Notes: generated by a model not told the origin, from the sequence alone. A stretch of 55,795 bases of DNA from Candidatus Giovannonibacteria bacterium RIFCSPLOWO2_12_FULL_43_11c (GCA_001780775.1 MFIO01000008.1:1-55795); one strand, 5' to 3'. Positions 14,211 through 53,605 are shown, counted from the stretch's first letter. Numbers and translations: made by a program.

Positions 14211-14211
14211 C

Positions 14212-16356: not shown

Positions 16357-16367
16357 TCCTTTATAAT

Positions 16368-20070: not shown

Positions 20071-20088
20071 CCTTCCGATTTCTAATTG

Positions 20089-23125: not shown

Positions 23126-23156
23126 GGCTTGATTATATCTCTATTTCGCATAATAT

Positions 23157-26660: not shown

Positions 26661-26797
26661 CGAGACCAAAACTTGCCAAAACTGTCCCGTAAAATCACGA
26701 ACGCAGGCGAGTAGATTTTACGCGGACCCCGTGATTCCGAACTTTGTGAGGAATTTTTCGGGGTTACCTTCGGTGATTAACGGGATAAACAAACAAA

Positions 26798-29070: not shown

Positions 29071-29089
29071 ATGCTAAAATTAATGTATT

Positions 29090-32268: not shown

Positions 32269-33485
32269 GAGAAAAACTTAATGTAACTTTCCGCGCCTTG
32301 CGGTCGCGCAATTTTAGACTGTTTTTGTTTGGGCAGGGGATTTCAAACATGGGGACATGGATGCAGAGGGTGGCTTTGAGCTGGCTTGTCTACGAGCTTA
32401 CAAGCTCGGCACTTCTATTAGGTTTAGTAAATTTCGCGAGTTACATACCATTACTTATTATATCTCCCATCGCCGGAGTATGGATTGATCGGTATCCCAA
32501 AATAAAAATCGTCATCGCGACGCAAATTTTATCTATGATTCAGGCGTTCATACTTGCTTTTTTAGTGCTTTCCGGAAAAATCGAGATTTGGCACGTCATA
32601 GTTTTGAGTTTGTTTTTGGGCGTGATAAACGCCTTTGATGTCCCCGGAAGGCAATCGTCGTATATAAATTTGATAGATAACAAAGAAGATTTACCGAACG
32701 CAATCGCGCTTAATTCCGTCGCCTTTCATCTCTCGCGCTTCATAGGCCCGTCTATCGCTGGGATAATAATCGCGGCTTTTAGCGAAGGCATCAGCTTTTT
32801 AGTAAACGGCTTTAGTTATATCCCTGTTATAATTTCTCTTTTCATGATCCGCGTCGATGAAGAGCCTAAGAAGGGCGAAGAAAAGCATGCGTCGGAGGAG
32901 TTGAAAGACGGATTTAGATATATTTCCGCTAGGCCCGGTTTAAAAAATATATTATTACTGGTTGGAGCTATAAGTCTTTTCGGGTGGTCTTACACTATTT
33001 TATTCCCGATTTTCGCGAAAGATATATTAGGTGGAGACGCGCTTACCTTCGGTTTTCTTAATTCCGCGGCGGCGATAGGCGCTATCGTCGGAGCCTTTTA
33101 TGCGGCGTCCCGGAAGGATCTTTTTGGATTGGAGCGGAGGGCGGTTTTTTTCGCTTCTATATTCGGCGTTGCTCTTGTCTTGTTTTCTTTTTCAAAGATG
33201 ATTTGGTTTTCCATATTTTTTGTAGCACTCTCCGGTCTTGGGGCCATGCTTCATAATACCTCTGCGAATTCTTATGTTCAGAGCGTTGTCTCCGGAGAAA
33301 GGCGTGGAAGAGTCATGAGTTTCTACGCCTTGGCGCACCAAGGATTGATCCCGATAGGCAGTTTATTGCTCGGTTGGGCGGCGTCGTCTTATGGGGCTCC
33401 CGCCGCGATGATAGCCGCTGGCATATTCTGCATCTTATCCGTCTTGCTTCTAGGCCCGAGAATAGTTGCGTCATATTCGAAGTGA
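32265..33485 (+). CDS. MFS transporter
   Basis: 406 aa with about 12 TM helices. The start region resembles the EntS/MFS_3 family (FRLFLFGQGISNMGTWMQRVAL). Confidence 0.75.
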   Translation: MREKLNVTFRALRSRNFRLFLFGQGISNMGTWMQRVALSWLVYELTSSALLLGLVNFASYIPLLIISPIAGVWIDRYPKIKIVIATQILSMIQAFILAFLVLSGKIEIWHVIVLSLFLGVINAFDVPGRQSSYINLIDNKEDLPNAIALNSVAFHLSRFIGPSIAGIIIAAFSEGISFLVNGFSYIPVIISLFMIRVDEEPKKGEEKHASEELKDGFRYISARPGLKNILLLVGAISLFGWSYTILFPIFAKDILGGDALTFGFLNSAAAIGAIVGAFYAASRKDLFGLERRAVFFASIFGVALVLFSFSKMIWFSIFFVALSGLGAMLHNTSANSYVQSVVSGERRGRVMSFYALAHQGLIPIGSLLLGWAASSYGAPAAMIAAGIFCILSVLLLGPRIVASYSK

Positions 33486-33558
33486 AGCTTTACATCTCAA
33501 AGGCTTCTTGATATCTTAAACTCGAAGTTAGGATTAAAAATCTGAAGGAGGAAGAATT

Positions 33559-34314
33559 ATGAATACATTCTGGAAGGATGCTTTTGCCATAACGGCGGGA
33601 GCTTTTTTTGGAGCCATACTGGCTCATGCAATGGGTCATTTCTGGGCGGGAGGTTTGCTCTTTGGCGGAGCCATTGGATACTTCGCGCGGCTTATAACGG
33701 AACCGTTGCGCATTCTCGAAGCTCTCAGGCAGGCTTATCAGGATGTGTATCACTGGCGACCCAAGAAAGAATGGAAGACGTGTTTTCGCGAAGGATCGCT
33801 CTATGGCATCGGCGCTGGCGGAGTATTAGGTATGTTTGGGTTTGGCCCATTTTCCTTATACAGGGGTTATGAGCAAGGCGCTTCATTGGAACAGCTTATC
33901 TATTCCTATTATTTTACAGTGGCTGTTTCAGAAATATTGGCGCCAATCTTCGGTGCAATCTTTGCATATCAAGAGTATTTATACCTAGATGAAGATGCTT
34001 CAAAGATGGCAAAACATTTCAATGCCGTATCGCTACATTACTACGTCCTCAAGGGCGCCGGTTACTCCATCTTCTATTTAGTCGCTGCCATCTGCAAAAT
34101 TCCTCGTTTCCTTCGGCTCTTTGCCATCTTCGTGCATTCAGAGAATTTTACAGCTTGTGCTGTGTATGCGCTGATGGCGGGTTCGATTGTTTTCCTCCTC
34201 GTTCCGTACAATCCACCATTGATGCTTGCCGTATCAAGTCTGGCAGGCCTCTTCGGCGCTTGGGTTCGACCGAAAGCGCTTGCGATGTTGGAGCCGGCTC
34301 TTTCTTCGCCGTAA
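33559..34314 (+). CDS. hypothetical membrane protein
   Basis: 251 aa, multi-TM, with a GAAGGAGG RBS. Confidence 0.4.
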   Translation: MNTFWKDAFAITAGAFFGAILAHAMGHFWAGGLLFGGAIGYFARLITEPLRILEALRQAYQDVYHWRPKKEWKTCFREGSLYGIGAGGVLGMFGFGPFSLYRGYEQGASLEQLIYSYYFTVAVSEILAPIFGAIFAYQEYLYLDEDASKMAKHFNAVSLHYYVLKGAGYSIFYLVAAICKIPRFLRLFAIFVHSENFTACAVYALMAGSIVFLLVPYNPPLMLAVSSLAGLFGAWVRPKALAMLEPALSSP

Positions 34315-34326
34315 TGGCGATTTACT

Positions 34327-34357
34327 TGGGGCTCGAAGACAAAGTCTCCGAGCCCCA
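34327..34357 (+). terminator. hairpin after 33559..34314
   Basis: TGGGGCTCG-A-AGAC-AAA-GTCT-C-CGAGCCCCA. The T-tail is weak. Confidence 0.4.
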
Positions 34358-34399
34358 CTTCAATTTTATGAGATTTACTGTTACAATTTTCAAATGAAT

Positions 34400-34515
34400 C
34401 CCGTTAGAAGCCGCGGTCGCTAGATATATCAACATGAATAAAAATTATTATTTATATAGTTCCATTTATAGGCATAACGAATGTATGGTTAAGACCGCGG
34501 CCTGCTTCTAACGGG
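34400..34515. repeat. 19-nt inverted repeat pair flanking a 74-bp AT-rich spacer, abutting the start codon of 34516
   Basis: CCCGTTAGAAGCCGCGGTC (34400..34418) pairs with GACCGCGG(CCTG)CTTCTAACGGG (34493..34515). Confidence 0.6.
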
Positions 34516-35787
34516 ATGAAATTCGAGAAGAAAACTTTTAAGAACGGGCTTCGGGCGATAGTTGCGCCGATGAAGGATACGCAGGCGATGACTCTGCTTG
34601 TGCTTTTTGGAACCGGTTCGAAATATGAAATAAAGAAATTGAACGGCGTTTCTCATTTTTTGGAGCATCTATTTTTTAAAGGAACGAAACACCGCCCCAA
34701 GGCTGGGCAGATTAATCTGGAGCTGGATCGGCTAGGAGCCGAATCAAACGCGTTTACCTCCAAAGAATACACAGGATACTACGTGAAAGCTGCGGCGAAA
34801 CATTTCGATGTTGCTCTTGATATCGTTTCCGATATATTGCTCGAACCGCTTTTTAAAGCGGATGAAATTGAAAAGGAGAGAGGAGTGATTCTGCAGGAAC
34901 TTTCGATGTATGAGGATAATCCCCAAAGACAAGCTTACGAAATTTTTGAGGATTTGCTCTATGGGGACCAGCCCGCAGGGTGGATGACTGGAGGATACCC
35001 CGATACCGTGAAAAACATAACTCGCGGCGACATAGTTCATTACAAAGCGGGTCACTATCTTTCTTCCAACGCCGTAGTTGCCGTGACCGGGAATATTGAT
35101 CAGGCTCGCGTATTCAAAAAAATCGAAAAAGTTTTTTCAAAGATGCCACAAGGAGAAAAATTAGAAAAACTTAAAGTGGTGGAATCGCAAGCTAGGCCGC
35201 AAGTTAAATTAAAAAAGAAAGATGTTGATCAAACCCATATACGCCTCGGGGTTCGCTCCTATAATATGTATGACGAGAGAAGATATCCGTTGACGGTTTT
35301 AAACACAATAATCGGAGGGAATTGGTCGTCGCGCCTCTTTACGGAGTTGCGCGAGAAACTTGGCCTTGCTTATTATGTCCGATCAGCGGTCGAGCAATAT
35401 ACGGATACAGGATATTTGATCGCTTCTGCCGGGATTCCTCATGGGACTTTGCCGAAAGTTTCCGAAAAGATCGTCCAGATTTTATCGAGCACCAGAAAAA
35501 AAGGAGTATCTGCTGAAGAAATTAAATTCGCCAAAGAGTATATCCGCGGTTCCATGGACCTTGCTTTCGAGTCGTCCGATGAAGTCGCGATGTATTTGGC
35601 CTCGCAGGAAATTTTTTATAAAAAAATCCTTACTCCCGAAGAAGTCTTGGTCAAGATTGAGAAGGTCCGAAGAAGTGATATCATGGGTATAGCTAGGGAT
35701 ATTTTCTCTCCCGCGAAGATTAATCTCGCGGCCATAACTCCGGACGATAATTCTAAACCATTTGAAAAAATATTGGCAAAAATATAA
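34516..35787 (+). CDS. M16-family (pitrilysin-like) zinc peptidase
   Basis: HFLEHLFFKGT inverted zincin motif (HxxEH). Confidence 0.85.
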   Translation: MKFEKKTFKNGLRAIVAPMKDTQAMTLLVLFGTGSKYEIKKLNGVSHFLEHLFFKGTKHRPKAGQINLELDRLGAESNAFTSKEYTGYYVKAAAKHFDVALDIVSDILLEPLFKADEIEKERGVILQELSMYEDNPQRQAYEIFEDLLYGDQPAGWMTGGYPDTVKNITRGDIVHYKAGHYLSSNAVVAVTGNIDQARVFKKIEKVFSKMPQGEKLEKLKVVESQARPQVKLKKKDVDQTHIRLGVRSYNMYDERRYPLTVLNTIIGGNWSSRLFTELREKLGLAYYVRSAVEQYTDTGYLIASAGIPHGTLPKVSEKIVQILSSTRKKGVSAEEIKFAKEYIRGSMDLAFESSDEVAMYLASQEIFYKKILTPEEVLVKIEKVRRSDIMGIARDIFSPAKINLAAITPDDNSKPFEKILAKI

Positions 35788-36822
35788 ATGAACGGCGAAA
35801 AATTAACAATAGATATCTCAACTCTCTCTCTAATAAAAGTTTCACTTTTTGTCGTTTTGGCTTGGCTTGTTTTCGAACTTCGTGGAGTTATAGGGGTTCT
35901 CTTAGCCTCTGTAGTAATTGCGTCTTCGGTGGAACCAGCAACGCGCTGGCTTTCCGCCTACAAAATTCCAAGAGTTATCGCTGTTATTTTTGTATATTTG
36001 GCTGCATTTACGATTCTTGGACTGATTTTTTATCTTATTTTGCCCCCGCTAGTTTCTGAGTTAGGCGGGTTTTTGACGGATCTCCCGGACAATATACAGA
36101 CGTTTGAGCCGACCAATATCTTTTCTTTTCTCCCGGAGTTGCCCAAGAGCCTCAATAATATATTAAGGGATGCCATCTTGAATTTCCGATACTATTCTTT
36201 TGAAGGCACATCAGGGCTTTTGGCTACAATCGCGAAAGTATTCGGAGGAGCCGTTTCATTTATTATGATAATAGTCATTTCTTTTTATTTGTCGGTTGAG
36301 GAGCGTGGTATCGAGAATTTTCTGAAAATAGTTACACCAAAAGAGTATGAAGGGTACGCACTTGATCTGTGGAACCGTTCAAGGCGGAAAATCGGACTTT
36401 GGTTCCAGGGCCAGCTACTTCTCGGCGTATTGGTAGGCGTCCTCGCTTTTTTGGGCCTTACCATACTTGGCGTCAAATATGCTCTCTTGCTCGCGATCCT
36501 TTCGGGAATTTTGGAAATAATTCCTGTGTTCGGGCCAATAATATCCGCAGTGCCGGCTATCGGAGTTGCCTTCACGCAAAAACCTATCCTGGGCCTCGCG
36601 GTTCTAATTCTATATGTTATCATCCAGCAATTTGAAAATCATCTTATCTACCCGTTGGTTGTGCGCAAGACCATAGGCATACCCCCGCTATTAGTCATTT
36701 TATCGATTTTTATTGGCGGAGTGCTTGCTGGGTTTTTCGGAATTATGCTTGCAGTCCCTGTTGCGACAGTGCTCGTGGAATTTATCAACGATTTTGCCAG
36801 GCGAAAACAGATTGAGTTTTAA
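35788..36822 (+). CDS. AI-2E family transporter (PerM/UPF0118)
   Basis: 344 aa, polytopic. Has the EIIPVFGPIISAVPA motif typical of the family. Confidence 0.8.
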   Translation: MNGEKLTIDISTLSLIKVSLFVVLAWLVFELRGVIGVLLASVVIASSVEPATRWLSAYKIPRVIAVIFVYLAAFTILGLIFYLILPPLVSELGGFLTDLPDNIQTFEPTNIFSFLPELPKSLNNILRDAILNFRYYSFEGTSGLLATIAKVFGGAVSFIMIIVISFYLSVEERGIENFLKIVTPKEYEGYALDLWNRSRRKIGLWFQGQLLLGVLVGVLAFLGLTILGVKYALLLAILSGILEIIPVFGPIISAVPAIGVAFTQKPILGLAVLILYVIIQQFENHLIYPLVVRKTIGIPPLLVILSIFIGGVLAGFFGIMLAVPVATVLVEFINDFARRKQIEF

Positions 36823-38352
36823 ATGGCTAAATTTTATATTACAACCGCAATCGATTATATAAACGGACCTCCGCATATTGGACACGCTATTCAGAAGGTT
36901 TGGGCTGATGTAATCGCGCGCTTTAGAAGAATATCTGGAGATGACGTTTTTTTTATGACAGGAACGGACGAACACGGTATCAATATAATGAAAAAAGCCG
37001 AGGAGCTTGGAAAAAGCCCAGAGAATTTAGCGGACGAAAATTCGGAAAAATTCAGGGCGATGAAAAAAACTTTGAATCTTTCGTGGGACGATTTCATCAG
37101 AACTACGGACAAAAAAAGGCATTGGCCAGGAGCCATCATGATTTGGAATAAGCTTCGCGAAGCAGGCGATATTTACAAATCACAATATGAAGGTCTTTAC
37201 TGTAACGGACACGAGGCGTTTATAACAGATAAAGACATGGAGGACGGGAAATGCGCTCTTCACGGCAAAGCGCCAGAGAAAATAAATGAAGAAAATTATT
37301 TTTTCAGGCTTTCTAAATATGCCTCTAAGATCAAAGAGGCTATCGAGTCCGGAGAATTTAAGATTTTACCCGAGTCAAGGAAAAATGAGATATTATCGCT
37401 TATTGGCGATGGGCTCGAAGACGTGAGTTTTTCGAGGTCCGAGAAAGATCTTCCGTGGGGTATTCCGGTTCCCGGGGACGAGAGCCAGGTGATGTATGTT
37501 TGGTGCGATGCGTTGGCTAATTATTTGTCCGCGATTGGTTATGGGAGAAACGACGATTGGAAAAAGTGGTGGCCTGCGGATTTGCATGTTTTAGGGAAAG
37601 ACAACTTACGCTTTCATGCCGCGATTTGGCCGGGAATGCTTCTTGCCGCTGGCCTCGATCTTCCCAAATCTCTTTTAGTACACGGCTTTATCCAGGCCGG
37701 AGGAAGAAAAATGTCAAAAACTTTGGGAAATATTGTGGATCCATTCGATTTGGTTGAACACTTTGGAACCGATGCTGTGCGTTATTATTTTTCGCGCGAA
37801 GTTCCGATTTTTGATGACGGAGATTTTACTGAAGAGAAATTCGAACGTGCTTATGAAGGCAATTTGGTAAACGGACTCGGGAATTATATTCAGCGCGTCT
37901 CAACTATGGCTAGGAATTATTTTCCGGAAGGGATCGTGCGGCCGAGTCACGAAGATTTATTAAAAGTTGCGTTAAAGAGGGGAAATTCTGAATATGTAAC
38001 GCTTGAATATTTTGTGAAAGAAATAATCACCAAAGAATATCGAGAGGCCATGGAAAAATTTGAACTCACGAAAGCAATAGATAAAATTTTTGAACTTTTG
38101 AAAGAGCTTGATGTATATGTTCAAGTAAATGAGCCATTTAAGCTCATAAAGACCGATAAGGAAAAAACTCGAGTGATTTTGTGGAATTTATGTTATGGCG
38201 CCGTTGGGCTGGCTTGGCTTCTTTCCCCGTTTTTACCAGAAACTTCGGACAAGATATTTGATATTTTCGGAATTTCAGAGAAATTAAAACAGGAATGGAG
38301 TGATTTCAAGGCAAAAGAGCATAAAGCGTTGTTTCCGCGCATTGAGAAATGA
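36823..38352 (+). CDS. metG: methionine--tRNA ligase
   Basis: YITTAIDYINGPPHIGHA and KMSKTLGN. Confidence 0.95.
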   Translation: MAKFYITTAIDYINGPPHIGHAIQKVWADVIARFRRISGDDVFFMTGTDEHGINIMKKAEELGKSPENLADENSEKFRAMKKTLNLSWDDFIRTTDKKRHWPGAIMIWNKLREAGDIYKSQYEGLYCNGHEAFITDKDMEDGKCALHGKAPEKINEENYFFRLSKYASKIKEAIESGEFKILPESRKNEILSLIGDGLEDVSFSRSEKDLPWGIPVPGDESQVMYVWCDALANYLSAIGYGRNDDWKKWWPADLHVLGKDNLRFHAAIWPGMLLAAGLDLPKSLLVHGFIQAGGRKMSKTLGNIVDPFDLVEHFGTDAVRYYFSREVPIFDDGDFTEEKFERAYEGNLVNGLGNYIQRVSTMARNYFPEGIVRPSHEDLLKVALKRGNSEYVTLEYFVKEIITKEYREAMEKFELTKAIDKIFELLKELDVYVQVNEPFKLIKTDKEKTRVILWNLCYGAVGLAWLLSPFLPETSDKIFDIFGISEKLKQEWSDFKAKEHKALFPRIEK

Positions 38353-39221
38353 AATTATTTGATGTCCATACGCATGTCCAGTTCGCGGCTTTCCGCGATG
38401 ATGCCAAAACGGTTATTTTGCGCGCTCTTGAGGCTGGAGTCTGGATGATTAACGTAGGCACTCAAAAAGATACTTCCGAAGCCGCGATAAAAATAGCGCA
38501 TGAATACAAGGAAGGGATATATGCGACTGTCGGTTTGCACCCCATTCATACTTCAAGGTCTTATCACGATGAACAAGAAATTGGTGCCGCTTCCGAAGGG
38601 AGCGAGCCTCGCCTCGACGGTTTCTGGTCGAGGCGGGAAGAATTTGATTACAATGAATATAAAAAACTCGCGCTAGATGAGAAAGTTATCGCGATTGGGG
38701 AGTGCGGATTGGATTATTACAGGCTCGAAGAGGATACGAAAAAAAAACAGGAAAGAATTTTTATAAAACAAATTGAGCTTTCGCGCGACACAAAAAAACC
38801 CCTCATGATACATTGCCGCGAAGCCTTCGGCGACCTGATTAATATTCTGAATTCTTATCATTCCTCATTGATCCCGAGGCCTGGAGTGGTTCATTTTTTT
38901 TCCGGAGATAAAGAGGAAGCAAAGAAACTCATGGATTTCGGCTTTTTATTTTCCTTCGGCGGCGTTCTCACGTTTACGCGCGACTACGAAGACGTCGTAA
39001 AATATATTCCGCTCGAGCAAATTTTACTCGAAACCGACGCGCCGTATGTCGCTCCCGTGCCGTATCGCGGAAAACGCAACGAACCGAGTTATGTAATTGA
39101 AGTCGCAAAGAAAATTGCAGAAATAAAAAGCTTGAGCTTGGAACAGGCTGCCGAAATTACTTTCCAAAATGCACAGAAGATTTTCCAACTTGGTAGCTTA
39201 GCTACCAAGTTGCTAGAATAG
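38349..39221 (+). CDS. tatD: TatD-family metal-dependent hydrolase
   Basis: FDVHTHVQ, AIGECGLDY, IHCREA, ETDAPY. The last 11 codons are encoded by a REP-like palindrome. Confidence 0.85.
   Translation: MKLFDVHTHVQFAAFRDDAKTVILRALEAGVWMINVGTQKDTSEAAIKIAHEYKEGIYATVGLHPIHTSRSYHDEQEIGAASEGSEPRLDGFWSRREEFDYNEYKKLALDEKVIAIGECGLDYYRLEEDTKKKQERIFIKQIELSRDTKKPLMIHCREAFGDLINILNSYHSSLIPRPGVVHFFSGDKEEAKKLMDFGFLFSFGGVLTFTRDYEDVVKYIPLEQILLETDAPYVAPVPYRGKRNEPSYVIEVAKKIAEIKSLSLEQAAEITFQNAQKIFQLGSLATKLLE
39186..39212. repeat. REP-like palindrome, copy 1
   Basis: CAACTTGGTAGC-TTA-GCTACCAAGTTG with perfect 12-bp arms. It lies inside the 3' end of tatD. Confidence 0.8.
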
Positions 39222-39225
39222 AAGT

Positions 39226-39882
39226 ATGAGAGGGATAAAATTTTCAAACGAAGAATTTTATCATATTTATAACCGCGGAGTTGATAAGCGGGAGATTTTT
39301 CTTGAGGGATATGATTTGAATAGGTTTTTTCAAAGCATGGATGAATTTAACACTCTCGAACCCATCGGAAGTATTTATGAAAAATCTTTTCTTAATTTAT
39401 CGCAATTTAAAGATTCTGATGAGAAATTGGTAAGATTTATCTGTTATTGCCTAAATCCAAACCACTATCATTTTATACTTCAGCAAGTTTCAGACCGAGG
39501 AATTGAAAAATTTATGCATCGTCTATCTGGAGGATACACAAGATATTTTAATGAAAAGTATAGGCGCACGGGATCTTTGTTTCAGGGCGCTTATAAGGCG
39601 ATCCATATAGATTCAAACGAATATCTTCTGCATCTGAGCGCCTACGTGAATTTAAATAACCATGCTCACCAACTTGGTAGCTCGGCTACCAAGTCAAGTT
39701 GGGCAGAATATATCGGGACGGACAACGCGCATACATTTTGTAGCAAGAAAATTATTTTAGATCAATTCCAAAATCCCAGAGAATACGAAGAATTTGCCAA
39801 GGAATCCTTGAAGAATATCTTAGAGAAAAAGAGAATGGCAACTGAACTCGAGAGATATATTTTGGAGGCGGATAGATTTTGA
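39226..39882 (+). CDS. Y1 (HUH) transposase, REP-associated tyrosine transposase (RAYT)/IS200-like
   Basis: 218 aa. Has YHIYNRGVDKREIF, the HUH motif NPNHYHFIL, GSLFQGAYKAIHI and LSAYVNLN. Confidence 0.8.
   Translation: MRGIKFSNEEFYHIYNRGVDKREIFLEGYDLNRFFQSMDEFNTLEPIGSIYEKSFLNLSQFKDSDEKLVRFICYCLNPNHYHFILQQVSDRGIEKFMHRLSGGYTRYFNEKYRRTGSLFQGAYKAIHIDSNEYLLHLSAYVNLNNHAHQLGSSATKSSWAEYIGTDNAHTFCSKKIILDQFQNPREYEEFAKESLKNILEKKRMATELERYILEADRF
39670..39694. repeat. REP-like palindrome, copy 2 (inside the RAYT ORF)
   Basis: CAACTTGGTAGC-TCG-GCTACCAAGT, translated as QLGSSATK. Confidence 0.7.
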
Positions 39883-39888
39883 GCTATA

Positions 39889-39912
39889 AACTTGGTAGCT
39901 TAGCTACCAAAT
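39889..39912. repeat. REP-like palindrome, copy 3
   Basis: AACTTGGTAGC-TTA-GCTACCAAAT. It overlaps the stop and last codons of the minus-strand ORF 39900..40685. Confidence 0.75.
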
Positions 39913-40685
39913 AAGAACTCTTTTCCAAAATCCCTGATTAACTCTCTTTTCGAATCTTCATAAATCTCTTTAAGTCTGCCGTTGAGGTAAAGATTTCTCT
40001 GATAATCAGAAAATTTATTCCATGCAGATTCTATATTTGATGCTTCTTTCTCATATTTTTGGAGGATGGGAATACCGCCCATCGTAGACCATGACGGTAA
40101 ACCATACTCCGCATATCTTTTATTTCCTTGAAGCCAACCAAACTCTGTTTTAGCGATATCGAATCGCGCCATTATTTTCGGGCGAATCTCGATATCTGAA
40201 CCACTACCTTTGCGCATTACTCTATCGCCTACTTTGGTTGTTGTGCCATCTTTCAAAAACTTTCTAGTTTTTTCTTCTATCGTTTTTGCAATCTGTTCCA
40301 TATTATCGTGACTTCCAATATAAATAGTCGCGCCAGATTCATTTAATCCATTGAAATAGGTTCCTGAACCAGCTTCAGTTTTAAAGTAAAGCCCATTTTC
40401 ATAAAGCAATCCCGAAACTTCTTTTTCTTTGCCTTTCTCGAAAGCAATATGAATTTTCCACCCCTTAGATGAATACGCTGAGAAAGGACTTTCATCTTCT
40501 TTAGTTTGAAAATATCCGTCTTTTACTCCTCTCGGCTTCCATCGCTCCTGCCAAAATCCTTCAAATTCTTTTCTCCGCTGTTCCTTAGCAGCTTCGTTGT
40601 AAATGGTTCCCCAAAGTAAAGGATCCACATTCTTTTGTGCAGGTGTTACTTCGTGGCTAGATTGTAATCGATTCTCAAACCCCAT
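39900..40685 (-). CDS. hypothetical protein
   Basis: 261 aa, soluble, with no confidently recognised motif. The C-terminal FLFGS* is encoded by REP copy 3. Confidence 0.45.
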   Translation of the reverse strand: MGFENRLQSSHEVTPAQKNVDPLLWGTIYNEAAKEQRRKEFEGFWQERWKPRGVKDGYFQTKEDESPFSAYSSKGWKIHIAFEKGKEKEVSGLLYENGLYFKTEAGSGTYFNGLNESGATIYIGSHDNMEQIAKTIEEKTRKFLKDGTTTKVGDRVMRKGSGSDIEIRPKIMARFDIAKTEFGWLQGNKRYAEYGLPSWSTMGGIPILQKYEKEASNIESAWNKFSDYQRNLYLNGRLKEIYEDSKRELIRDFGKEFLFGS

Positions 40686-40788
40686 GGCCTAATAGAAACG
40701 TAAATCGCATTTATTTGACTCAATTATAGCTCATTTTACTAAGAATGGCTGAACGGAGAAGCCAGATCCCTCACGCGAAATCGTTTTC

Positions 40789-40817
40789 TTGAAAAAAATC
40801 CCGAAAAATAATAGAAT
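40789..40817 (+). promoter_or_regulatory. putative promoter of leuS
   Basis: TTGAAA, 17 nt, then TAGAAT. The -10 ends 8 nt before the leuS ATG. Confidence 0.4.
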
Positions 40818-40825
40818 TCTGGGAT

Positions 40826-43327
40826 ATGTCGGCATATTCCAAGATAGAGAACAAGTGGCGAAAGCTGTGGCTTAAGGCGAGGGTTTATGAACCGGATTTA
40901 AGGAAAGCCAAAAAACCTTTCTATAATTTGATGATGTTTCCGTATCCTTCCGCGGAAGGGTTGCATATTGGGAGTGTACGGACTTTTACTGGAATTGATA
41001 TTTATGGAAGGTTTAAAAGGATGCAGGGAAACAATGTTTTTGAACCCATCGGGCTCGATGGGTTTGGAATAAATTCGGAGAACTACGCGCTTAAGATCGG
41101 CGCCCATCCAGTAAAGCAGGCAAAAATCTCGGAGAAAAATTTTTATCGCCAGCTTGAGATGATCGGAAACGGATTTGCGTGGCGCGAGCGCCTCGAGACC
41201 TATGACACGGATTATTATAAGTGGACGCAGTGGATTTTTGTGCAAATGTTTAAAGATGGCCTCGCTTATCGCAAGCAATCGCCCGTGAATTGGTGCCCGT
41301 CTTGCAAAACGGTTTTGGCTGACGAACAAGTCCTGCCTGCCGGCAAACAGGAATTTGCCGGGGAATGCGAAAGGTGCGGATCGAAAATAGAGAAAAAGGA
41401 TTTAGAGCAATGGTTTTTCAAAATAACCGATTATGCTGAGAGGCTCTTGTCTGGCCTGGATAAAATAGATTGGCCAGAAAGCGTTAAGGTAGCACAGAGA
41501 AATTGGATAGGCCGCTCCGAAGGATATTCGCTGAAGTTTCCATTGGTCGGCATCCCGGAGCAGGAGGATAGGAAGCATTCAATAGATATTTTTACCACGC
41601 GCCCTGACACTCTTTTCGGGGCGACTTTCGTTGCAATTTCTCCGGAACTCGCGAAAAGATGGATTAACGCGGGATGGCAAGCCTCCGATGAAATAAAAAA
41701 GTATATTTCAAGCGCGCTCGCTCGACGCGAAGGCAGGGAAATATCTGGAGAGGCGGAGAAAACAGGAGTTTTTTTCGGAATACATGCGATTAACCCCGCC
41801 AATCAAGAAAAAATCCCGGTCTGGATTTCCGATTATGTTTTGGACACATATGGTACGGGGGCGATTATGGCCGTGCCAGCGCACGACAGCCGAGATTTTG
41901 AATTCGCAAAGAAATTTAATCTTGTTATTCGTGAAGTGATTTCTCCAAACGGAAGAGACCATGATTTGAGGTCGGCATATATGGATCCAGGAGTCATGAT
42001 AAATTCCGCGAAGTTTAATGGAATTAACTCCGAAGCGGCAAAAATTGAAATAACAAAATTTGCCGGTGGTGACAGAAAAATTAACTATCGCCTGCGAGAT
42101 TGGCTTATCTCACGTCAACGCTATTGGGGGCCTCCTATCCCAATGATTTTTTGTAGCGCCTGCGGAAAATTGGGGAAAGGAGAAAGAAAGGATATGCCGG
42201 GGTGGTATTCTGTTCTGGAAAAAGATCTCCCTGTTCGTTTACCGTTTATTAAGGACTATAGGCCGCAGGGGACGGGTGAGTCTCCGCTCGCGAAAGATAA
42301 AAAATTTTCCAAGGTAAAGTGCCCCAAATGCAAAAACTGGGCGTGCCGTGAGACGGACGTGTCTGACACCTTTCTGGATTCTACTTGGTACTTTTTCCGC
42401 TATTTGGACGCAAAAAATAAACGCAAGCTCTTTGACTGGCTCAGGGTAAAAAGATGGCTGCCAGTGAACATGTATATTGGCGGGTCGGAGCATTCCGTTT
42501 TGCATCTGCTTTATTCCCGTTTTATTACCAAAGCTTTTTTTGATTGGAAGATAATTAATTTCGATGAACCGTTTCCCAAATTTAGGGCGCACGGTTTGAT
42601 AATCAAAGGTGGCGCCAAAATGTCCAAATCCAAAGGAAATATTGTAAACCCCGACGGTTATTTTAAAGATTTTGGCGCGGATGTCATGAGGCTCTACCTG
42701 GCGTTCATGGCCCCGCTCGATAGCGGGGGAAATTTTCGCGATGAGGGTATCTCCGGTGTTGATCGTTTCTTAGTGCGCGTAAAAAAGCTTGGTGCCAAAT
42801 TGGCGAAAACCTCAAAAGATGGGCTTAGTAAAAATTCGGAAAAACTGCTTCATAAATCGATTAAAAAAGTCGGGGAAGATATAGAAAATCTCCATTACAA
42901 TACGGCAATTTCTCAGATGATGATTCTTTTAAATGAGTTTGAGAAACTGCCGTCTTTACCATGGCACCCTTATGGTATATTTTTGAAACTACTTGCTCCC
43001 TTCGCGCCGTATTTAACCGAGGAACTTTGGCAGAATTTCTCCTTTAAAGGTAGCGTAGCCTCTGGCTGGAAAAAACAAAATTCTATCCACCTTGAATCTT
43101 GGCCTAAATTTGATCCCAAAAAAATAAAGGACGAGAATTTTAAATTGATTATTCAAATAAATGGAAGGGTGCGGGCGGTTTTAGATGCTACAACCGGAAT
43201 TTCGGAAAAAGAAGCTCTCGAAATGGCCACGAATGATGAAAATGTCAAAAAATATCTTTCTTCGCTAGCCGGCTCTCCAAAGAAAACTATTTTCGTCCCA
43301 GACAAGTTATTAAATCTTGTAATATAA
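40826..43327 (+). CDS. leuS: leucine--tRNA ligase
   Basis: 833 aa. Has PYPSAEGLHIGS and KMSKSKGN. Confidence 0.95.
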   Translation: MSAYSKIENKWRKLWLKARVYEPDLRKAKKPFYNLMMFPYPSAEGLHIGSVRTFTGIDIYGRFKRMQGNNVFEPIGLDGFGINSENYALKIGAHPVKQAKISEKNFYRQLEMIGNGFAWRERLETYDTDYYKWTQWIFVQMFKDGLAYRKQSPVNWCPSCKTVLADEQVLPAGKQEFAGECERCGSKIEKKDLEQWFFKITDYAERLLSGLDKIDWPESVKVAQRNWIGRSEGYSLKFPLVGIPEQEDRKHSIDIFTTRPDTLFGATFVAISPELAKRWINAGWQASDEIKKYISSALARREGREISGEAEKTGVFFGIHAINPANQEKIPVWISDYVLDTYGTGAIMAVPAHDSRDFEFAKKFNLVIREVISPNGRDHDLRSAYMDPGVMINSAKFNGINSEAAKIEITKFAGGDRKINYRLRDWLISRQRYWGPPIPMIFCSACGKLGKGERKDMPGWYSVLEKDLPVRLPFIKDYRPQGTGESPLAKDKKFSKVKCPKCKNWACRETDVSDTFLDSTWYFFRYLDAKNKRKLFDWLRVKRWLPVNMYIGGSEHSVLHLLYSRFITKAFFDWKIINFDEPFPKFRAHGLIIKGGAKMSKSKGNIVNPDGYFKDFGADVMRLYLAFMAPLDSGGNFRDEGISGVDRFLVRVKKLGAKLAKTSKDGLSKNSEKLLHKSIKKVGEDIENLHYNTAISQMMILLNEFEKLPSLPWHPYGIFLKLLAPFAPYLTEELWQNFSFKGSVASGWKKQNSIHLESWPKFDPKKIKDENFKLIIQINGRVRAVLDATTGISEKEALEMATNDENVKKYLSSLAGSPKKTIFVPDKLLNLVI

Positions 43328-49600: not shown

Positions 49601-50079
49601 TTTATAATAATCTTGTCGTATTTCTCGGTAATTATCTTGCATGGATTTTGGGCGCGGTTCTGATTTTTTTTGCACTTTATCAAAACAGAAAAAATTTCCG
49701 CGTGGCAGTAGAGGCGCTTTTTGCAGGAATCATTTCGAGATTTATATTTACGGAGATAATAAGATATTTTCATGATAAGCCTAGGCCGTTTGAAATCGAT
49801 GGGTCAATTCCTCTCATTTTGCACGAAGTCGGGAAATCATTTCCGTCCGGGCACGCGGCGTTTTTTTTCGCAATTGCCGCGACACTATTTATCTATAATC
49901 GTAGATGGGGAATTGTATTTTTTATTGCGGCGATCGCGATGGGTGCCGGGCGCGTCTTGGCTCATATCCATTGGCCTATCGATATTTTAGGCGGAGCCGT
50001 TATAGGAATTGTGTCCGCCGCAATTGTATGGAAAGTTATGCACAAATTTAATTTGACGCATCAAAGGGAATCAGCTTAA
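49597..50079 (+). CDS. PAP2-family phosphatase (undecaprenyl-diphosphatase-like)
   Basis: SFPSGHAAFFFA and RVLAHIHWPIDILGG. Confidence 0.75.
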   Translation: MIYNNLVVFLGNYLAWILGAVLIFFALYQNRKNFRVAVEALFAGIISRFIFTEIIRYFHDKPRPFEIDGSIPLILHEVGKSFPSGHAAFFFAIAATLFIYNRRWGIVFFIAAIAMGAGRVLAHIHWPIDILGGAVIGIVSAAIVWKVMHKFNLTHQRESA

Positions 50080-50104
50080 TCTAATAAAGTTCCTCTAAAA
50101 ATTA

Positions 50105-50214
50105 ATGCAGTTTCTTGATTACGGTCGTAGGTTGGGGAAGTAGGTGCGAATCCTACACAGTGCCGCTACGGTAATCCGCCCATGAGGTGGAAAGTCCGAT
50201 GGCCAACCCTGCAT
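50105..50214 (+). promoter_or_regulatory. cobalamin riboswitch
   Basis: P1 is ATGCAG/CTGCAT and an inner helix is GGTTGG/CCAACC. The core is GGAAGTAGGTGCGAATCCTACACAGTGCCGCTACGGTAA. The B12-box-like segment is AAGTCCGATGGCCAACC. Confidence 0.75.
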
Positions 50215-50270
50215 GAATAGAATTTTTTCCTCGAGCAAGGTCTATTTTATTAGATTTAATTTAATTACAT

Positions 50271-50295
50271 CCGCCTCGGGGCGGTTTTTTGTTTT
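50271..50295 (+). terminator. intrinsic terminator (riboswitch expression platform)
   Basis: CCGCC-TCGG-GGCGG followed by TTTTTTGTTTT, ending at the ATG of 50296. Confidence 0.65.
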
Positions 50296-51885
50296 ATGTT
50301 CAATAGAAAAATAAAAAATTATATAGTCACAGTCTTACTTTTATCAGCTTTCGTTTTATTGCCGTTATTTCCCGTTCGTGGGAATGTCGATCAATCTATC
50401 GCATATTTAAAAACTAAAACTCCGAACCCATGGATAACCATGGCGCTTTCTGCGGTGGGCGAAAATCCGGACGTTGATTATTTAAAATCATTCGTCGGCG
50501 CTTCCGCTTCCGATTACGAAGCCGCTATTTTGGCTTTGACGGCGGCAGGCAAAGATCCCAGGTCTTTTCCGAACGAGAATTTTGTGCAAAAACTTAAAAG
50601 TTTTTATTCAAACGGGCAGATCGGCGACCCGTCTTTGTTGAACGACGATATTTTCGGCCTCTTGGCTTTATTGGCCGCGGGCGAGCCAATCGGCGACGAA
50701 GTAGCAAGCGGCGCGAAAAATTTCATTGTTCAAAATCAAAAAGAGGACGGCGGCTGGGCCTTCGCGCTGTCTACGGGGAGCGATACCAATATGACCTCCA
50801 TGACCTTGATGGCTCTTCTGGAAGCTGGCGCTTCCAAGACGGATGCGAATATTTCCAAGGCGGTCGGTTATCTTAAAGACGCCCAGAATTCCGACGGAGG
50901 ATTTCCCTATGATCCGAAAAGTTCATTTGGAACCTCATCCGACGCTTCGTCGGACGCGTGGGCGTTGTCGGCTTTGAACAAATTGGGCGAAGATTTGAAC
51001 GGATGGAAAAAAGACGGTCAAGGTCCATCCGAACATTTATCAGGCCTCGAGGCCCCATCTGGATATTTTGAATTCCAAAAGGGGAGCGGGGAAGATGCCT
51101 TTAGTCTCGTAACCACTTCTTACGCGGTAATCGCGCTTAGCGGCAAATATTATCCGGTTTCAAAAATCGCGCTCCAGGAAAACCCCTCAGTCAGTTTTAA
51201 AATAGAAGGGAAAACCAAAACATATTGCAAGGGCGAGGCACAGGCTCCCGATGCTTTGGAGCTGGTAAAAATAGCGGCCTCTAATTGCAATTTCACTTAT
51301 AACATCAAAGATACTTCTTACGGACCGTATTTGGAACAGATCGGAGATGACAAGGCTTCAGGAACCGACGGCTGGCTCTACGCTGTAAATTTTATACTGC
51401 CTAATATCGGCGCGGCGGATTACAAACTTAAGATCGGTGATTATGTTTTATGGCATTTCGGCGAATTTGATTGGCAGCCGCAAAGTTCCAGTGTAACGCT
51501 AAGCGCTAAAGTTGGAGGTTCGGCGGGAAATCCAGGCGGCGATAATCAAAATCCGGGCGAGGGCGAAATTTCTTTGAGCGTATCTATACCGGGAGCCGGA
51601 GGAAGTTTGGATTTCGGCGACATCTTGCCCGGGGAAAGTCGGACTAAAACCGTTAAAGTTACGAATTCCGGCAATGTTGCGCTTACGATTGAGAGCATCG
51701 TTACTGGGGATGATGTATTCAGAAATTATCTTAAAGTAAATAACCTTTCATGGCGGGATTTCGGGACAAATCTTGCGCCGGGCGTAAGCGAGGCCGAGAA
51801 AGTCGGCGTTCAAATCCCGTCTTCTTACGCAAGCCCCGGAACAAAAAACGGCCTTCTTATTTTTTGGGGAACACCTGGGCAATGA
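50296..51885 (+). CDS. secreted or anchored transcobalamin-like protein (prenyltransferase-like alpha/alpha toroid + DUF4430 + Ig-like domain)
   Basis: 529 aa with an N-terminal signal or anchor. Has QxxDGG repeats (QNQKEDGGWAF, AQNSDGGFPY). The DUF4430-like segment is GTDGWLYAVNFILPNIGAADYKLKIGDYVLWHF. It is controlled by the B12 riboswitch. Confidence 0.6.
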   Translation: MFNRKIKNYIVTVLLLSAFVLLPLFPVRGNVDQSIAYLKTKTPNPWITMALSAVGENPDVDYLKSFVGASASDYEAAILALTAAGKDPRSFPNENFVQKLKSFYSNGQIGDPSLLNDDIFGLLALLAAGEPIGDEVASGAKNFIVQNQKEDGGWAFALSTGSDTNMTSMTLMALLEAGASKTDANISKAVGYLKDAQNSDGGFPYDPKSSFGTSSDASSDAWALSALNKLGEDLNGWKKDGQGPSEHLSGLEAPSGYFEFQKGSGEDAFSLVTTSYAVIALSGKYYPVSKIALQENPSVSFKIEGKTKTYCKGEAQAPDALELVKIAASNCNFTYNIKDTSYGPYLEQIGDDKASGTDGWLYAVNFILPNIGAADYKLKIGDYVLWHFGEFDWQPQSSSVTLSAKVGGSAGNPGGDNQNPGEGEISLSVSIPGAGGSLDFGDILPGESRTKTVKVTNSGNVALTIESIVTGDDVFRNYLKVNNLSWRDFGTNLAPGVSEAEKVGVQIPSSYASPGTKNGLLIFWGTPGQ

Positions 51886-52409
51886 TTAAATTCGCCGCGG
51901 TTATTTTTGTCTCGCTATTTGTAATCACGGCAAACGCAGAGGCCGTCGGCTTGTCGGTCTCGCCCTCGGAATTGAGGGCATCCGGAACTTTCTATAAACC
52001 CGCATCCGCAAAATTCACGGTTAAAAATTCTTCGGATGGCGTCGCGCTTTTTGAAGTCTATCCGGACGATTTCGGGGATGCCATAAAAATTTCTCCGGAA
52101 AGTTTCATTTTGGAGGCCGGAGAAAAGAGGGAAATCGAGGCCTCGGCGAATTTTAAAAAATTAGGCAAATATTGGACCGATATTTCCATCGTGGCGAAAC
52201 CAGTGGCAAATTCGGCTTTCAAGACCGCCGGGGGGCTGAAGATTCCTTTTTATATTGATGTAAAAGAGGAAAAATCTTCGCAGCTGGGGCTCCTTATATC
52301 TTCCGTAAGCAAAGAGACTTTGATAGTTCTATCCATAATTTTTGCGTTTGCAATTTTGATTTTCTGTTTGAAATATGGTTTTCGAAAATTCAAGAAAGCT
52401 AAAAGTTAG
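51882..52409 (+). CDS. hypothetical protein with signal peptide, beta-sandwich and C-terminal TM anchor
   Basis: ATGA overlap with the upstream gene. The start was chosen at MIKFAAVIFVSLFVITANA. The C-terminal hydrophobic helix is followed by a basic tail. Confidence 0.45.
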   Translation: MIKFAAVIFVSLFVITANAEAVGLSVSPSELRASGTFYKPASAKFTVKNSSDGVALFEVYPDDFGDAIKISPESFILEAGEKREIEASANFKKLGKYWTDISIVAKPVANSAFKTAGGLKIPFYIDVKEEKSSQLGLLISSVSKETLIVLSIIFAFAILIFCLKYGFRKFKKAKS

Positions 52410-52809
52410 TTTAGGAATTGCGGCCGTAGTTTCGCTCCTATCTCTGGGCGCGTATTTATATTTCCACGTCGATTCGCCTACGGGAAATTTTGATTCTGCG
52501 GCGGTAACTTTAATTTTTGATTACGGGGATAGCCGCCGCGAGGTTTTTGCCAATGAGGAGTTTAAACAAGGCGAAAATTTATTCAATTTCACTAAAAACG
52601 AGCTCGCGGCAAAAAACATAATTTTTGAATTTCAGAAGTACCCGTCTTTGGGGAAGATGGTGACCAAAATCGGGGACAAAAAAAATAGCGCGGAAGGGGG
52701 ATATTGGCAATATTGGATAAACGGCAATTACGCTTCTGTTGGCGCCTCTGAATATTTGCTCAAACCCGGAGACAAAATCGAGTGGAAATTTTCCAAATCG
52801 AGTTTTTGA
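52375..52809 (+). CDS. membrane-anchored DUF4430-domain protein
   Basis: 144 aa with an N-terminal TM helix. GGYWQYWINGNYASVGASEYLLKPGDKIEWKF matches the DUF4430 / transcobalamin beta-domain pattern. Confidence 0.55.
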   Translation: MVFENSRKLKVSLGIAAVVSLLSLGAYLYFHVDSPTGNFDSAAVTLIFDYGDSRREVFANEEFKQGENLFNFTKNELAAKNIIFEFQKYPSLGKMVTKIGDKKNSAEGGYWQYWINGNYASVGASEYLLKPGDKIEWKFSKSSF

Positions 52810-52890
52810 GCAACCATCTCTAAATTGACAAAGAATTTCACCGCAAACATATTTGTGATATCCTAGAATAAATGTTTTTAAGGAGGGCGT

Positions 52891-53418
52891 ATGAGGCAAA
52901 TGTACGAGATTGCTCACGATTTAACATCAAATTTTCCGTCCGGCGTCTCGAATCAATTAAAAGCTTGCGGCATTGCCGGGATTTATCTGGAGGATTTAAG
53001 AGAATCTTTGCGCGGCATATTAAAACATAGGTGGGGTCCGCTAAACAGTAATGGGAAACATATGTATATAATTTCCCTCAATATGAATGATACTATCTCG
53101 GATTGGGCGCATACTGTCGGGCATGAACTATGTCATACTTTTCAAGAGGATTATGCATTCAGCGATGAATTGCTATCAAGCTTTTGTCATAAGTATGGGA
53201 TAGTAGTTGAAACGCGAGCGCGATTGCGAGACTATATTAATGGGGACGGGGGCTGCACAAAAGAATCCTTCCATTTTTATTTCGACACGCGAATTAAAGC
53301 CGACGAAGTTTTCTGTGAAATTTTTTCTTCGATCTGGCTTGCTAGGCCCGGCGTTAGATCGGAACTGGAAGAAATCCTCCACGCTCTTTCGGGAGAAAAT
53401 AGTATAATCGCTTTGTGA
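52891..53418 (+). CDS. putative HExxH metallopeptidase (ImmA/IrrE-like)
   Basis: 175 aa with AHTVGHELCHTF. Confidence 0.45.
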   Translation: MRQMYEIAHDLTSNFPSGVSNQLKACGIAGIYLEDLRESLRGILKHRWGPLNSNGKHMYIISLNMNDTISDWAHTVGHELCHTFQEDYAFSDELLSSFCHKYGIVVETRARLRDYINGDGGCTKESFHFYFDTRIKADEVFCEIFSSIWLARPGVRSELEEILHALSGENSIIAL

Positions 53419-53521: not shown

Positions 53522-53605
53522 GCCGCGGTGGCGGAATCGGCAGACGCACAGGACTCAAAATCCTGCGGGCGCAAGCTCATGAGGGTTCGACCCCCTCCCG
53601 CGGCA
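53522..53605 (+). tRNA. tRNA-Leu (anticodon CAA), class II with long variable arm, CCA not encoded
   Basis: The acceptor stem is GCCGCGG/CCGCGGC plus discriminator A. The anticodon loop is CTCAAAA. The T-arm is GAGGGTTCGACCCCCTC. The variable arm is a stem-loop. Confidence 0.9.

Follow-up and report, generated by a model that had tools for sequence, protein, structure and literature searches.

The window analyzed here is a stretch of 55,795 nucleotides (nt) from Candidatus Giovannonibacteria bacterium RIFCSPLOWO2_12_FULL_43_11c (GCA_001780775.1, MFIO01000008.1:1-55795), a member of the Candidate Phyla Radiation (CPR). In it, a predicted cobalamin riboswitch precedes a three-gene operon, the open reading frames (ORFs) of which are designated ORF1, ORF2, and ORF3. 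The first encodes a protein with the predicted fold of the eukaryotic vitamin B12 carriers transcobalamin, intrinsic factor, and haptocorrin. We consider it likely that the operon is part of a corrinoid-scavenging module of a B12-auxotrophic CPR bacterium and that it is switched off by B12, with the ligand, the regulation, and the transport route all being read from sequence, predicted structure, and gene context. The initial annotation of the window had proposed a cell-surface corrinoid-capture module, and this is the best-supported reading. The three products ORF1-3 are also those of the public gene calls for this contig (NCBI GCA_001780475.1, MFHK01000027.1). The elements of the locus are as follows.

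50098-50222, plus strand: predicted cobalamin-clan riboswitch aptamer core (own covariance model, 117 bits; RF01482, 45 bits over 50113-50251)
50229-50240, plus strand: P13-like hairpin CCTCGAGCAAGG with a conserved loop, a putative kissing-loop/antiterminator element corresponding to the 3' hairpin of the RF01482 match
50271-50295, plus strand: intrinsic terminator CCGCC-TCGG-GGCGG plus T-run (hairpin 50271-50284), abutting the ORF1 ATG
50296-51885, plus strand: ORF1, 529 amino acids (aa), transcobalamin-like (Pfam, AlphaFold2 model, Foldseek)
51882-52409, plus strand: ORF2, 175 aa, with a signal peptide, a putative immunoglobulin (Ig)-like beta sandwich, and a C-terminal transmembrane helix plus basic tail
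52375-52809, plus strand: ORF3, 144 aa, with an N-terminal transmembrane anchor and a stand-alone DUF4430/SLBB domain (Pfam DUF4430, 54.9 bits; cut-off, 23.8)

The relationship of ORF1 to the B12 carriers is clearest at the level of its predicted fold. The protein begins with a hydrophobic signal/anchor helix and contains two Q-x-x-DGG repeats. Pfam detects both SQHop_cyclase_C (35.3 bits; cut-off, 26.1) and DUF4430 (PF14478, the transcobalamin-like clade of the SLBB superfamily; 33.6 bits; cut-off, 23.8; aa 337-389) in it, and the C-terminal part gives weak Ig-like Pfam matches plus an NCBIfam 'choice-of-anchor D' match that falls under its cut-off. An AlphaFold2 model built from a 28-sequence alignment has a mean predicted local distance difference test score (pLDDT) of 84; in it, a helical toroid (residues ~30-290) is followed by a beta domain (~298-406), which a disordered, Gly-rich segment (408-425) connects to a beta sandwich (427-527). 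When this model was searched against the PDB with Foldseek, ranks 1-15 were occupied by rat, bovine, and human transcobalamin, intrinsic factor, and haptocorrin (E 2e-13 to 6e-11), in alignments of ~405-443 columns that extend over the two domains and preserve their order. Matches to squalene-hopene cyclases and prenyltransferase beta subunits ranked lower (E 5e-9 or weaker) and were confined to the toroid. As modeled, ORF1 shares with the B12 carriers a two-domain fold of alpha/alpha toroid plus SLBB (DUF4430), to which an Ig-like domain is added. The initial annotation had described an exported protein with exactly these parts, and the profile searches back its DUF4430 and toroid assignments, all of which score above cut-off in ORF1 and, for DUF4430, in ORF3. 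Profile similarity of ORF1 to the transcobalamin beta domain itself was weak (5no0, E 0.043; 2bb5, E 0.49).

Several residues of ORF1 are invariant in its family. Two of them, C311 and C331 of the beta domain, probably form a disulfide, and together with the hydrophobic N-terminus they fit an extracytoplasmic location for the protein. An acidic motif, L115-N116-D117-D118, is also invariant; its N116-D117-D118 portion is unchanged in 28 diverse family members and resembles, without equaling, the DxDD motif of class II cyclases, which is not present in ORF1. Among the candidates scored, 429 ORF1 homologues were identified, and all of the named ones belong to CPR lineages, including the Giovannoni-, Jorgensen-, Colwell-, Lipton-, Taylor-, and Doudnabacteria. 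Their annotations are limited to 'DUF4430 domain-containing protein', 'prenyltransferase beta subunit', or hypothetical protein. The closest relatives found in the scan of GTDB species come from Candidatus Giovannonibacteria, at 80% identity.

The link to B12 is provided by the 216-nt leader that separates the stop of a PAP2 phosphatase gene (ending at 50079) from the ORF1 ATG at 50296. At Rfam gathering thresholds, no cobalamin match was found in the 55.8-kb window, which yielded transfer-messenger RNA (tmRNA) and transfer RNA (tRNA) only. In a permissive Rfam scan of 50000-50350, RF01482 (AdoCbl, adenosylcobalamin; clan CL00101) matched 50113-50251 with 45.0 bits (E 2.7e-7; gathering score, 50). 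RF00174, the family to which the initial annotation had pointed, gave a weaker match that was dropped by clan competition, with two lower-scoring CL00101 families suppressed in all. The assignment to the cobalamin clan stands, with RF01482 in place of RF00174 as the best model and its score below gathering. The ATGCAG/CTGCAT closing helix (50106-50111/50209-50214) and the other motifs quoted in that annotation are present in the sequence, and the aptamer core comprises an outer helix, the T-loop hairpin GGTGCGAATCC, a small hairpin AGT-GCC-GCT, a P6 hairpin, and the segment AAGTCCG.

Comparison with related loci greatly strengthened this assignment. One genome per GTDB species was scanned, relatives were found in 205 species, and 80 loci were fetched. 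Those 23 orthologous leaders in which both of the most conserved motifs occur were aligned with that of the window, and a consensus fold was calculated with RNAalifold. This fold contains 19 consensus pairs, 13 of which show compensatory changes. The T-loop stem covaries (for example TA/CG/GC and AU/GC/CG/UA), as do the outer helix and P6, and the segments GGTG, A, TCC, TGCCG, and AAGTC are invariant across the 23 leader sequences. A covariance model made from this alignment was then run on both strands of the window and the 80 loci (1.13 Mb). All 71 matches, 48 of them from outside the training set, were on the coding strand just 5' of an ORF1 homologue, and no match was found anywhere else in these sequences. 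The riboswitch lies 5' of the ORF1 family in 70 of the 80 CPR loci, a pairing that is conserved across Parcubacteria-type CPR lineages; at three loci, the two are separated by a small DUF4430 gene or a different ORF. No match was obtained at 10 loci, two of which lack upstream DNA. As an independent check, the Rfam models were applied to an 18-locus subset that included 15 riboswitch-bearing loci. In 6 of these 15, models reached or exceeded their gathering scores at the positions already identified (RF01482 in three loci, RF00174 in two, and RF01689 in one), which argues that the element is a cobalamin-clan riboswitch. By sequence, the leader is a divergent CPR form of the AdoCbl-type riboswitches of this clan, with ligand binding being predicted. 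Standard annotation overlooks the CPR form in more than half of the cases examined.

The expression platform fits an OFF switch. A hairpin plus T-run follows the riboswitch in 57 of the 71 orthologues, and in the window it ends at the ORF1 ATG, just as initially described. A further hairpin, the loop of which carries the motif CGA(R)GC(W)A, occurs after 43 of the 71 orthologous aptamers and is the counterpart of the 3' (P13) hairpin of RF01482. In 21 loci, at least 6 nt of the P13 region can form Watson-Crick pairs with the terminator, an example being AGCAAGG versus CCTTGCT in L009, L016, L025, and L061 (L numbers designate individual related loci). In the window, direct reading of the sequence pairs CCUCGAG (50229-50235) with CUCGGGG of the terminator through 7 possible pairs, one of them G-U. 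Because it recurs across loci, this complementarity is favored as the presumed basis of antitermination. The minimum free energy fold had suggested a swap between the P6 hairpin (CCGCC..GGTGG) and the terminator (CCGCC..GGCGG) as the antiterminator. This candidate was dropped because the resemblance is not accompanied by covariation in relatives with other P6 sequences, such as L006, L010, and L025. Since the sole G-rich Shine-Dalgarno-like stretch near the ORF1 ATG sits in the 3' arm of the terminator, masking of the translation start is possible as well.

ORF1-3 form a tightly packed, translationally coupled operon in which the ORF2 ATG overlaps the ORF1 stop codon as ATGA and ORF3 overlaps ORF2 by 35 nt. 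The first of the two smaller products, ORF2, has the signal peptide and C-terminal anchor initially attributed to it; its Ig-like Pfam matches are weak (E 1e-3 to 8e-3). A profile comparison of the ORF2 family with the C-terminal Ig-like domain of ORF1 gave E 0.011 and a probability of 4%, and no relationship is claimed. ORF3 likewise turned out to be the membrane-anchored, stand-alone DUF4430 protein that had been predicted. Its DUF4430 domain is 37% identical to aa 325-391 of ORF1 and is paralogous to the ORF1 beta domain. A word-index search for ORF3 homologues, a method limited for short proteins, returned 8 close matches with no informative names, and tblastn of ORF3 against plasmids found nothing. 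Just past the operon lies a 175-aa ORF with an HExxH-like motif (GHELCH; 52891-53418, plus strand), preceded by a sigma-70-like site at 52825-52853. No significant Pfam match was obtained for it, the other loci lack a conserved counterpart, and it probably does not belong to the ORF1-3 operon.

To define the make-up of the operon in related CPR bacteria, ORFs were called and clustered in all related loci. The gene calls are crude and several contigs end early, so the counts that follow are lower bounds. Behind the riboswitch, 23 of 70 loci encode ORF1 and ORF2 only, 13 ORF1 only, 9 ORF1, ORF2, ORF3, and a DUF6580 protein, 7 ORF1, ORF2, and ORF3, and 4 ORF1, ORF2, and a protein of a family we call C8, with other combinations accounting for the remainder. 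An ORF2 homologue is found 3' of ORF1 in at least 46 of the 70 loci and ORF3 in at least 22. In at least 20 of the 70, the riboswitch operon includes a small polytopic gene product resembling the S component of an energy-coupling factor (ECF) transporter, either DUF6580 or C8. Where the fourth operon gene of relatives is of the DUF6580 kind, it matches the Pfam family well above cut-off (PF20221; 156-172 bits; cut-off, 27; E 1e-45 to 1e-50), and the DUF6580 profile matches the PDB chain 6fnp_A (182 aa; E 4.3e-5). From its chain length, copy number, and generic name 'Membrane protein', we infer that this chain is CbrT.

In a subset of these loci, the operon is contiguous with genes for B12-dependent metabolism. 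The order in L009, L014, L016, L017, and L073 is riboswitch, ORF1, ORF2, C8, class II ribonucleotide reductase (RNR), and PduO, and in L021 the DUF6580 gene is followed by an RNR gene and a CobO-type adenosyltransferase gene. Other neighbors were also observed. Pairs of radical SAM enzymes with a B12-binding domain (Pfam B12-binding plus Radical_SAM; ~470-655 aa) are encoded 5' of the riboswitch in L037 and L044 and 3' of the operon in L062 and L071; by their domains, these enzymes would form another group of B12 consumers tied to the locus. In L068 and L076, a gene for a DrrA-like ABC ATPase (307-311 aa) directly follows the ORF1 homologue and replaces ORF2/ORF3, and its product may be a different export or import partner.

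The initial annotation reported no transporter genes. This is true of the operon, in which no BtuCDF, ECF, or TonB component was found. The window nevertheless holds a candidate transporter gene 34 kb from the operon, directly upstream of two genes for the use of B12.

15823-16356, plus strand: candidate membrane transporter, 177 aa, with an ECF S-component fold, C8 family (structural model, Foldseek, hhalign)
16368-18659, plus strand: AdoCbl-dependent class II RNR with ATP-cone (Pfam RNR-II_ins_dom, ATP-cone)
18660-19202, plus strand: PduO-type ATP:cob(I)alamin adenosyltransferase (Pfam Cob_adeno_trans, 1.7e-42; TIGR00636, 150 bits; cut-off, 108)

The model of the C8 protein (pLDDT, 87.3; predicted template modeling score, 0.82) has the six-helix fold of S components, and the top 14 Foldseek matches in the PDB are all ECF S components (RibU, FolT, and others) with template modeling scores of 0.53-0.72. 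The S-component identity comes from the fold search only, the C8-family profile having found no match among PDB sequences and the window protein being under the Pfam cut-off (PF07155, 21.5 versus 26.7 bits). C8 and DUF6580 are remotely related (hhalign probability, 87%; E 3.7e-6), and it is the C8 gene only that is present in the window, which has no DUF6580 gene. The C8 family has more than 2,700 detected members, some of them named 'ECF transporter S component', and is without a Pfam model of its own; many members carry precomputed PF07155, PF12822, or PF20221 matches. The class II RNR scores 308 bits with TIGR02505 (RTPR), under the cut-off of 340. The initial annotation spoke of B12-dependent enzymes in the window, and just this one was found, along with the PduO adenosyltransferase. 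The C8-nrdJ-pduO trio is also present on an independent contig. No cob gene was found in the window, in line with the initial annotation, and the search for BtuCDF, TonB, and cob genes was equally negative across the operon, the window, and ~10 kb past each end (~75 kb examined). Judging from its modeled fold and its neighbors, the small C8 gene probably encodes the transporter for B12. The hand-over route to the cytoplasm, left unexplained at first, therefore has a likely candidate, given the S-component-like genes within riboswitch operons of relatives and the position of the window C8 gene beside nrdJ-pduO.

These elements suggest a pathway for B12 acquisition. With abundant (adenosyl)cobalamin in the cell, the aptamer and P13 would fold, the terminator would form, and the operon would be off. 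When cobalamin is low, the P13 sequence would instead pair with the terminator, and transcription would read through. ORF1 would be kept at the cell surface by its own N-terminal helix and/or by the tail-anchored ORF2, and it would bind a corrinoid sandwiched by the toroid and the beta domain. This ligand might then be handed, possibly via the membrane-proximal ORF3, to the S-component-like protein encoded at 15823-16356 and moved across the membrane. Energy for this step could come from a shared ECF A/A'/T module encoded elsewhere in the genome, or the transporter could act as a solitary S component like BtuM. Once inside, the corrinoid would be adenosylated by PduO and used by the class II RNR for deoxynucleoside triphosphate synthesis.

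A number of observations weigh against this proposal. The root-mean-square deviation between the ORF1 model and transcobalamin is ~24 Å and the inter-domain pose differs, so that the match is one of domain folds and their order and not of the closed, B12-bound pose. ORF1 also has no match to PF01122, the family of eukaryotic cobalamin binders, among Pfam hits with E up to 1. The window aptamer, taken alone, is a near miss by the Rfam gathering score, and the role and fold of ORF2 are weakly supported. Furthermore, a substantial share of the related loci (the 23 of 70 noted above) have only ORF1 and ORF2 behind the riboswitch. The window C8 gene is outside riboswitch control and owes its presumed B12 specificity to context. 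No EcfA/EcfA'/EcfT energizing module was found in the window or ~10 kb past each end, and solitary CbrT gave no B12 uptake in Escherichia coli (PMC5997447). Finally, nrdJ is located 3' of the OFF-riboswitch operon and on the same strand in the five loci with the C8-RNR-PduO order and in L021. Repressing an essential B12-requiring enzyme when B12 is plentiful would be paradoxical, implying an internal promoter or a different regulatory logic.

A wider claim can be entertained, though we regard it as rather doubtful. In Parcubacteria-type CPR, B12 uptake would be lineage-wide and self-contained, with a full-length surface transcobalamin homologue plus ORF2/ORF3 loading a solitary S-component-fold transporter that works without an ECF ATPase, and these organisms would depend on class II RNR yet be unable to make B12. 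As attachment to a host is common among CPR bacteria, such a system might draw B12 directly from the host's surface or from its carriers. If this were true, the system would be the main cofactor lifeline for a large part of the CPR and a tractable bacterial model for B12 binding and release by the transcobalamin fold.

Other explanations of the locus are less compatible with the data. It is improbable that ORF1-3 constitute a corrinoid store, a means of competitive sequestration, or a device for host attachment and B12 stripping that feeds no dedicated transporter, in which case the S-like proteins would carry some other substrate. The loci with only ORF1 and ORF2, the absence of linkage between the window S-like gene and the riboswitch, and the failure to find an energizer in the region searched would all be in keeping with this idea, and Bacteroides BtuG/BtuH provide a precedent for surface B12 binders that can serve competition (PMC6143338, PMC8941943). 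On the other hand, DUF6580 or C8 is co-operonic in the 20 or more loci described above, adjoining nrdJ-pduO, an operon repressed by B12 is in keeping with uptake that serves the cell itself, and a cell with a class II RNR must import B12 somehow. That many CPR bacteria are episymbionts is a further point in favor of storage, sequestration, or host attachment.

There is similarly little chance that the captured ligand is heme or another tetrapyrrole, or a corrinoid precursor, and that the riboswitch merely couples uptake to B12 status. In Lactobacillus sakei, the ECF-like operon lsa1836-1840 encodes split transcobalamin alpha-/beta-like proteins that were read in a preprint as heme scavengers on the basis of modeling and docking, the cobalamin-binding residues being not conserved (10.1101/864751). 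The missing PF01122 match of ORF1 would agree with such a role. However, the conserved leader that accompanies the gene in 70 of 80 loci is a cobalamin-clan riboswitch, the partner genes in relatives are those for nrdJ, PduO/CobO adenosyltransferases, and B12-binding radical SAM enzymes, and no heme-related gene recurs in the examined loci. Capture of a precursor would be consistent with the ability of ECF-CbrT to transport cobinamide too (PMC5997447), but no cobinamide salvage genes (CobS/U/T) were seen in the window.

It is very unlikely that ORF1 is an extracytoplasmic terpene-cyclase/prenyltransferase-type enzyme acting on an envelope lipid or isoprenoid, with DUF4430 as a generic ligand module and a B12 link that is regulatory only. 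The strongest sequence matches of the toroid are indeed to squalene-hopene cyclase repeats (SQHop_cyclase_C, and 1gsz at E 1.8e-24 with the ORF1-family profile), the N116-D117-D118 acidic motif is invariant, and some relatives are named 'prenyltransferase beta subunit'. Nevertheless, the full-length cyclase models TIGR01507, TIGR01787, and TIGR03463 score only ~29-31 bits on ORF1 versus cut-offs of 322-851, ORF1 has one toroid where squalene-hopene cyclase has two, and its motif reads L-N-D-D and not DxDD. No isoprenoid genes recur nearby, and in the fold search that takes in the beta domain, B12 carriers fill the first 15 places and every cyclase or prenyltransferase ranks behind them. Least credible of all is a decayed, non-functional riboswitch relic in front of an operon that is constitutive or otherwise controlled: the score of the window element below gathering, a whole-leader folding energy that is not unusual (z = -1.3), and the failure to find a sigma-70-like promoter just upstream would fit a relic, but its strong conservation with compensatory helix changes across distant CPR lineages, its strictly fixed position, the conserved terminators, and the orthologues that pass Rfam thresholds would not.

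The proposed corrinoid-scavenging module shares features with several known systems. Like ORF1, the eukaryotic carriers transcobalamin, intrinsic factor, and haptocorrin (PF01122; PDB 2BB5, 2PMV, 4KKI) have an alpha6/alpha6 toroid followed by a beta-grasp (SLBB) domain and are secreted or extracytoplasmic. In contrast to them, ORF1 is outside PF01122 by sequence, with a toroid closer to squalene-hopene cyclase repeats, it carries an additional C-terminal Ig-like domain and an N-terminal membrane/signal helix, and it is encoded under a riboswitch together with a tail-anchored partner and a solo SLBB protein. Bacterial proteins of the same architecture class were described by Burroughs, Balaji, Iyer & Aravind (2007), who predicted that secreted toroid plus SLBB proteins, some of them with Ig-fold domains, sandwich B12, and who proposed that animals got transcobalamin from Gram-positive bacteria (PMC1796856). 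The structural insight of the initial annotation was therefore correct but not new. The scope of the 2007 study was Gram-positive bacteria and archaea, CPR genomes being unknown at the time, and it included no riboswitch link, ORF2 partner, DUF6580/C8 S-component-like link, or nrdJ-pduO link (PMC1796856). A related arrangement was observed in the gut Firmicute Vescimonas fastidiosa (pMM35_01 22614-41450; L088), where the gene for a ~2,200-aa DUF4430 protein with a toroid domain adjoins genes for a beta-sandwich protein of the cadherin-like type and for a protein of 1,097 aa with prenyltransferase repeats. No cobalamin riboswitch was detected at this locus at Rfam thresholds, indicating that the riboswitch link is not general to all toroid/DUF4430 proteins.

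For the transport step, the closest parallel is in Lactobacillus delbrueckii. Structure 6FNP is that of ECF-CbrT, a biochemically proven vitamin B12 ECF transporter from this organism, the discovery of which was led by an nrdJ-cbrS-cbrT-pduO cluster (PMC5997447). There, as at 15823-19202 of the window, an S component is encoded beside an RTPR-type reductase and PduO. The window differs in that its S-like protein belongs to a separate family, C8, and in that no EcfA/A'/T module was found in the ~75 kb. Surface capture also has a counterpart in the B12-capture lipoproteins BtuG and BtuH, which are encoded in riboswitch-controlled btu loci of Bacteroides (PMC6143338, PMC8941943). The shared logic is that of B12-riboswitch-repressed surface corrinoid capture upstream of a membrane transporter. 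The folds are unrelated, with BtuG being a beta-propeller, and BtuG and BtuH, as lipoproteins of a diderm, deliver B12 to the TonB-dependent BtuB, whereas ORF1-3 are transcobalamin-like and/or transmembrane-anchored and would presumably hand over to the S-component-like protein. BtuM, a solitary ECF-type S component, reportedly imports B12 without an ECF module, a finding attributed to Rempel et al. in 2018. It is a precedent for B12 uptake by a lone protein of the S-component fold and would fit the lack of an ECF module near the window genes. Neither C8 nor DUF6580 showed a sequence relation to BtuM in PDB profile searches, and BtuM uses a Cys ligand, whereas the C8 family has an invariant His139 and no invariant Cys.

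In the open-access literature, we found no description of the CPR-wide ORF1 family with its near-obligate riboswitch, nor of the ORF2 partner, the two S-component-like families, or their nrdJ-pduO linkage. The proposed system would be a CPR-wide form of an already known type, riboswitch-repressed corrinoid capture coupled to an S-component-type importer, and not a new principle. Its interest lies partly in the organisms concerned, as the CPR/Patescibacteria account for a large share of bacterial diversity and are mostly uncultivated, with minimal metabolism. A single B12 supply chain would tie together a riboswitch, a surface-protein pair, two S-component-like families, an adenosyltransferase, and a B12-dependent reductase, thereby providing candidate functional names for large 'DUF4430', 'DUF6580', and unnamed families. 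The predicted growth requirement for B12 or other corrinoids is testable in cultivation attempts, and in the ORF1 family, structural and evolutionary studies would have full-length bacterial relatives of human transcobalamin at their disposal.

Several other features of the window were noted in the course of the analysis. A 333-aa reverse transcriptase (RVT_1, E 6.9e-22) is encoded at 13209-14210 (plus strand) beside a NUDIX hydrolase gene (14155-14640); from its sequence, it could belong to a group II intron, a retron, a diversity-generating retroelement, or a defense-associated system. An isoleucyl-tRNA-synthetase-like protein of 1167 aa (23157-26660, plus strand) contains a complete His_Phos_1 domain (E 5e-29) inserted at aa 497-668, within the class I synthetase catalytic region, which is an unusual fusion or insertion. 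The tmRNA at 20086-20400 (minus strand) scores 75 bits and fits the bacterial model poorly in several internal regions. The tRNA at 53522-53605 (plus strand) is 84 nt long and has a long variable arm. Between tatD and an unannotated reverse-strand gene, the gene at 39226-39882 (plus strand) encodes a protein of 218 aa that contains an IS200-like Y1 transposase domain (E 2.9e-8).

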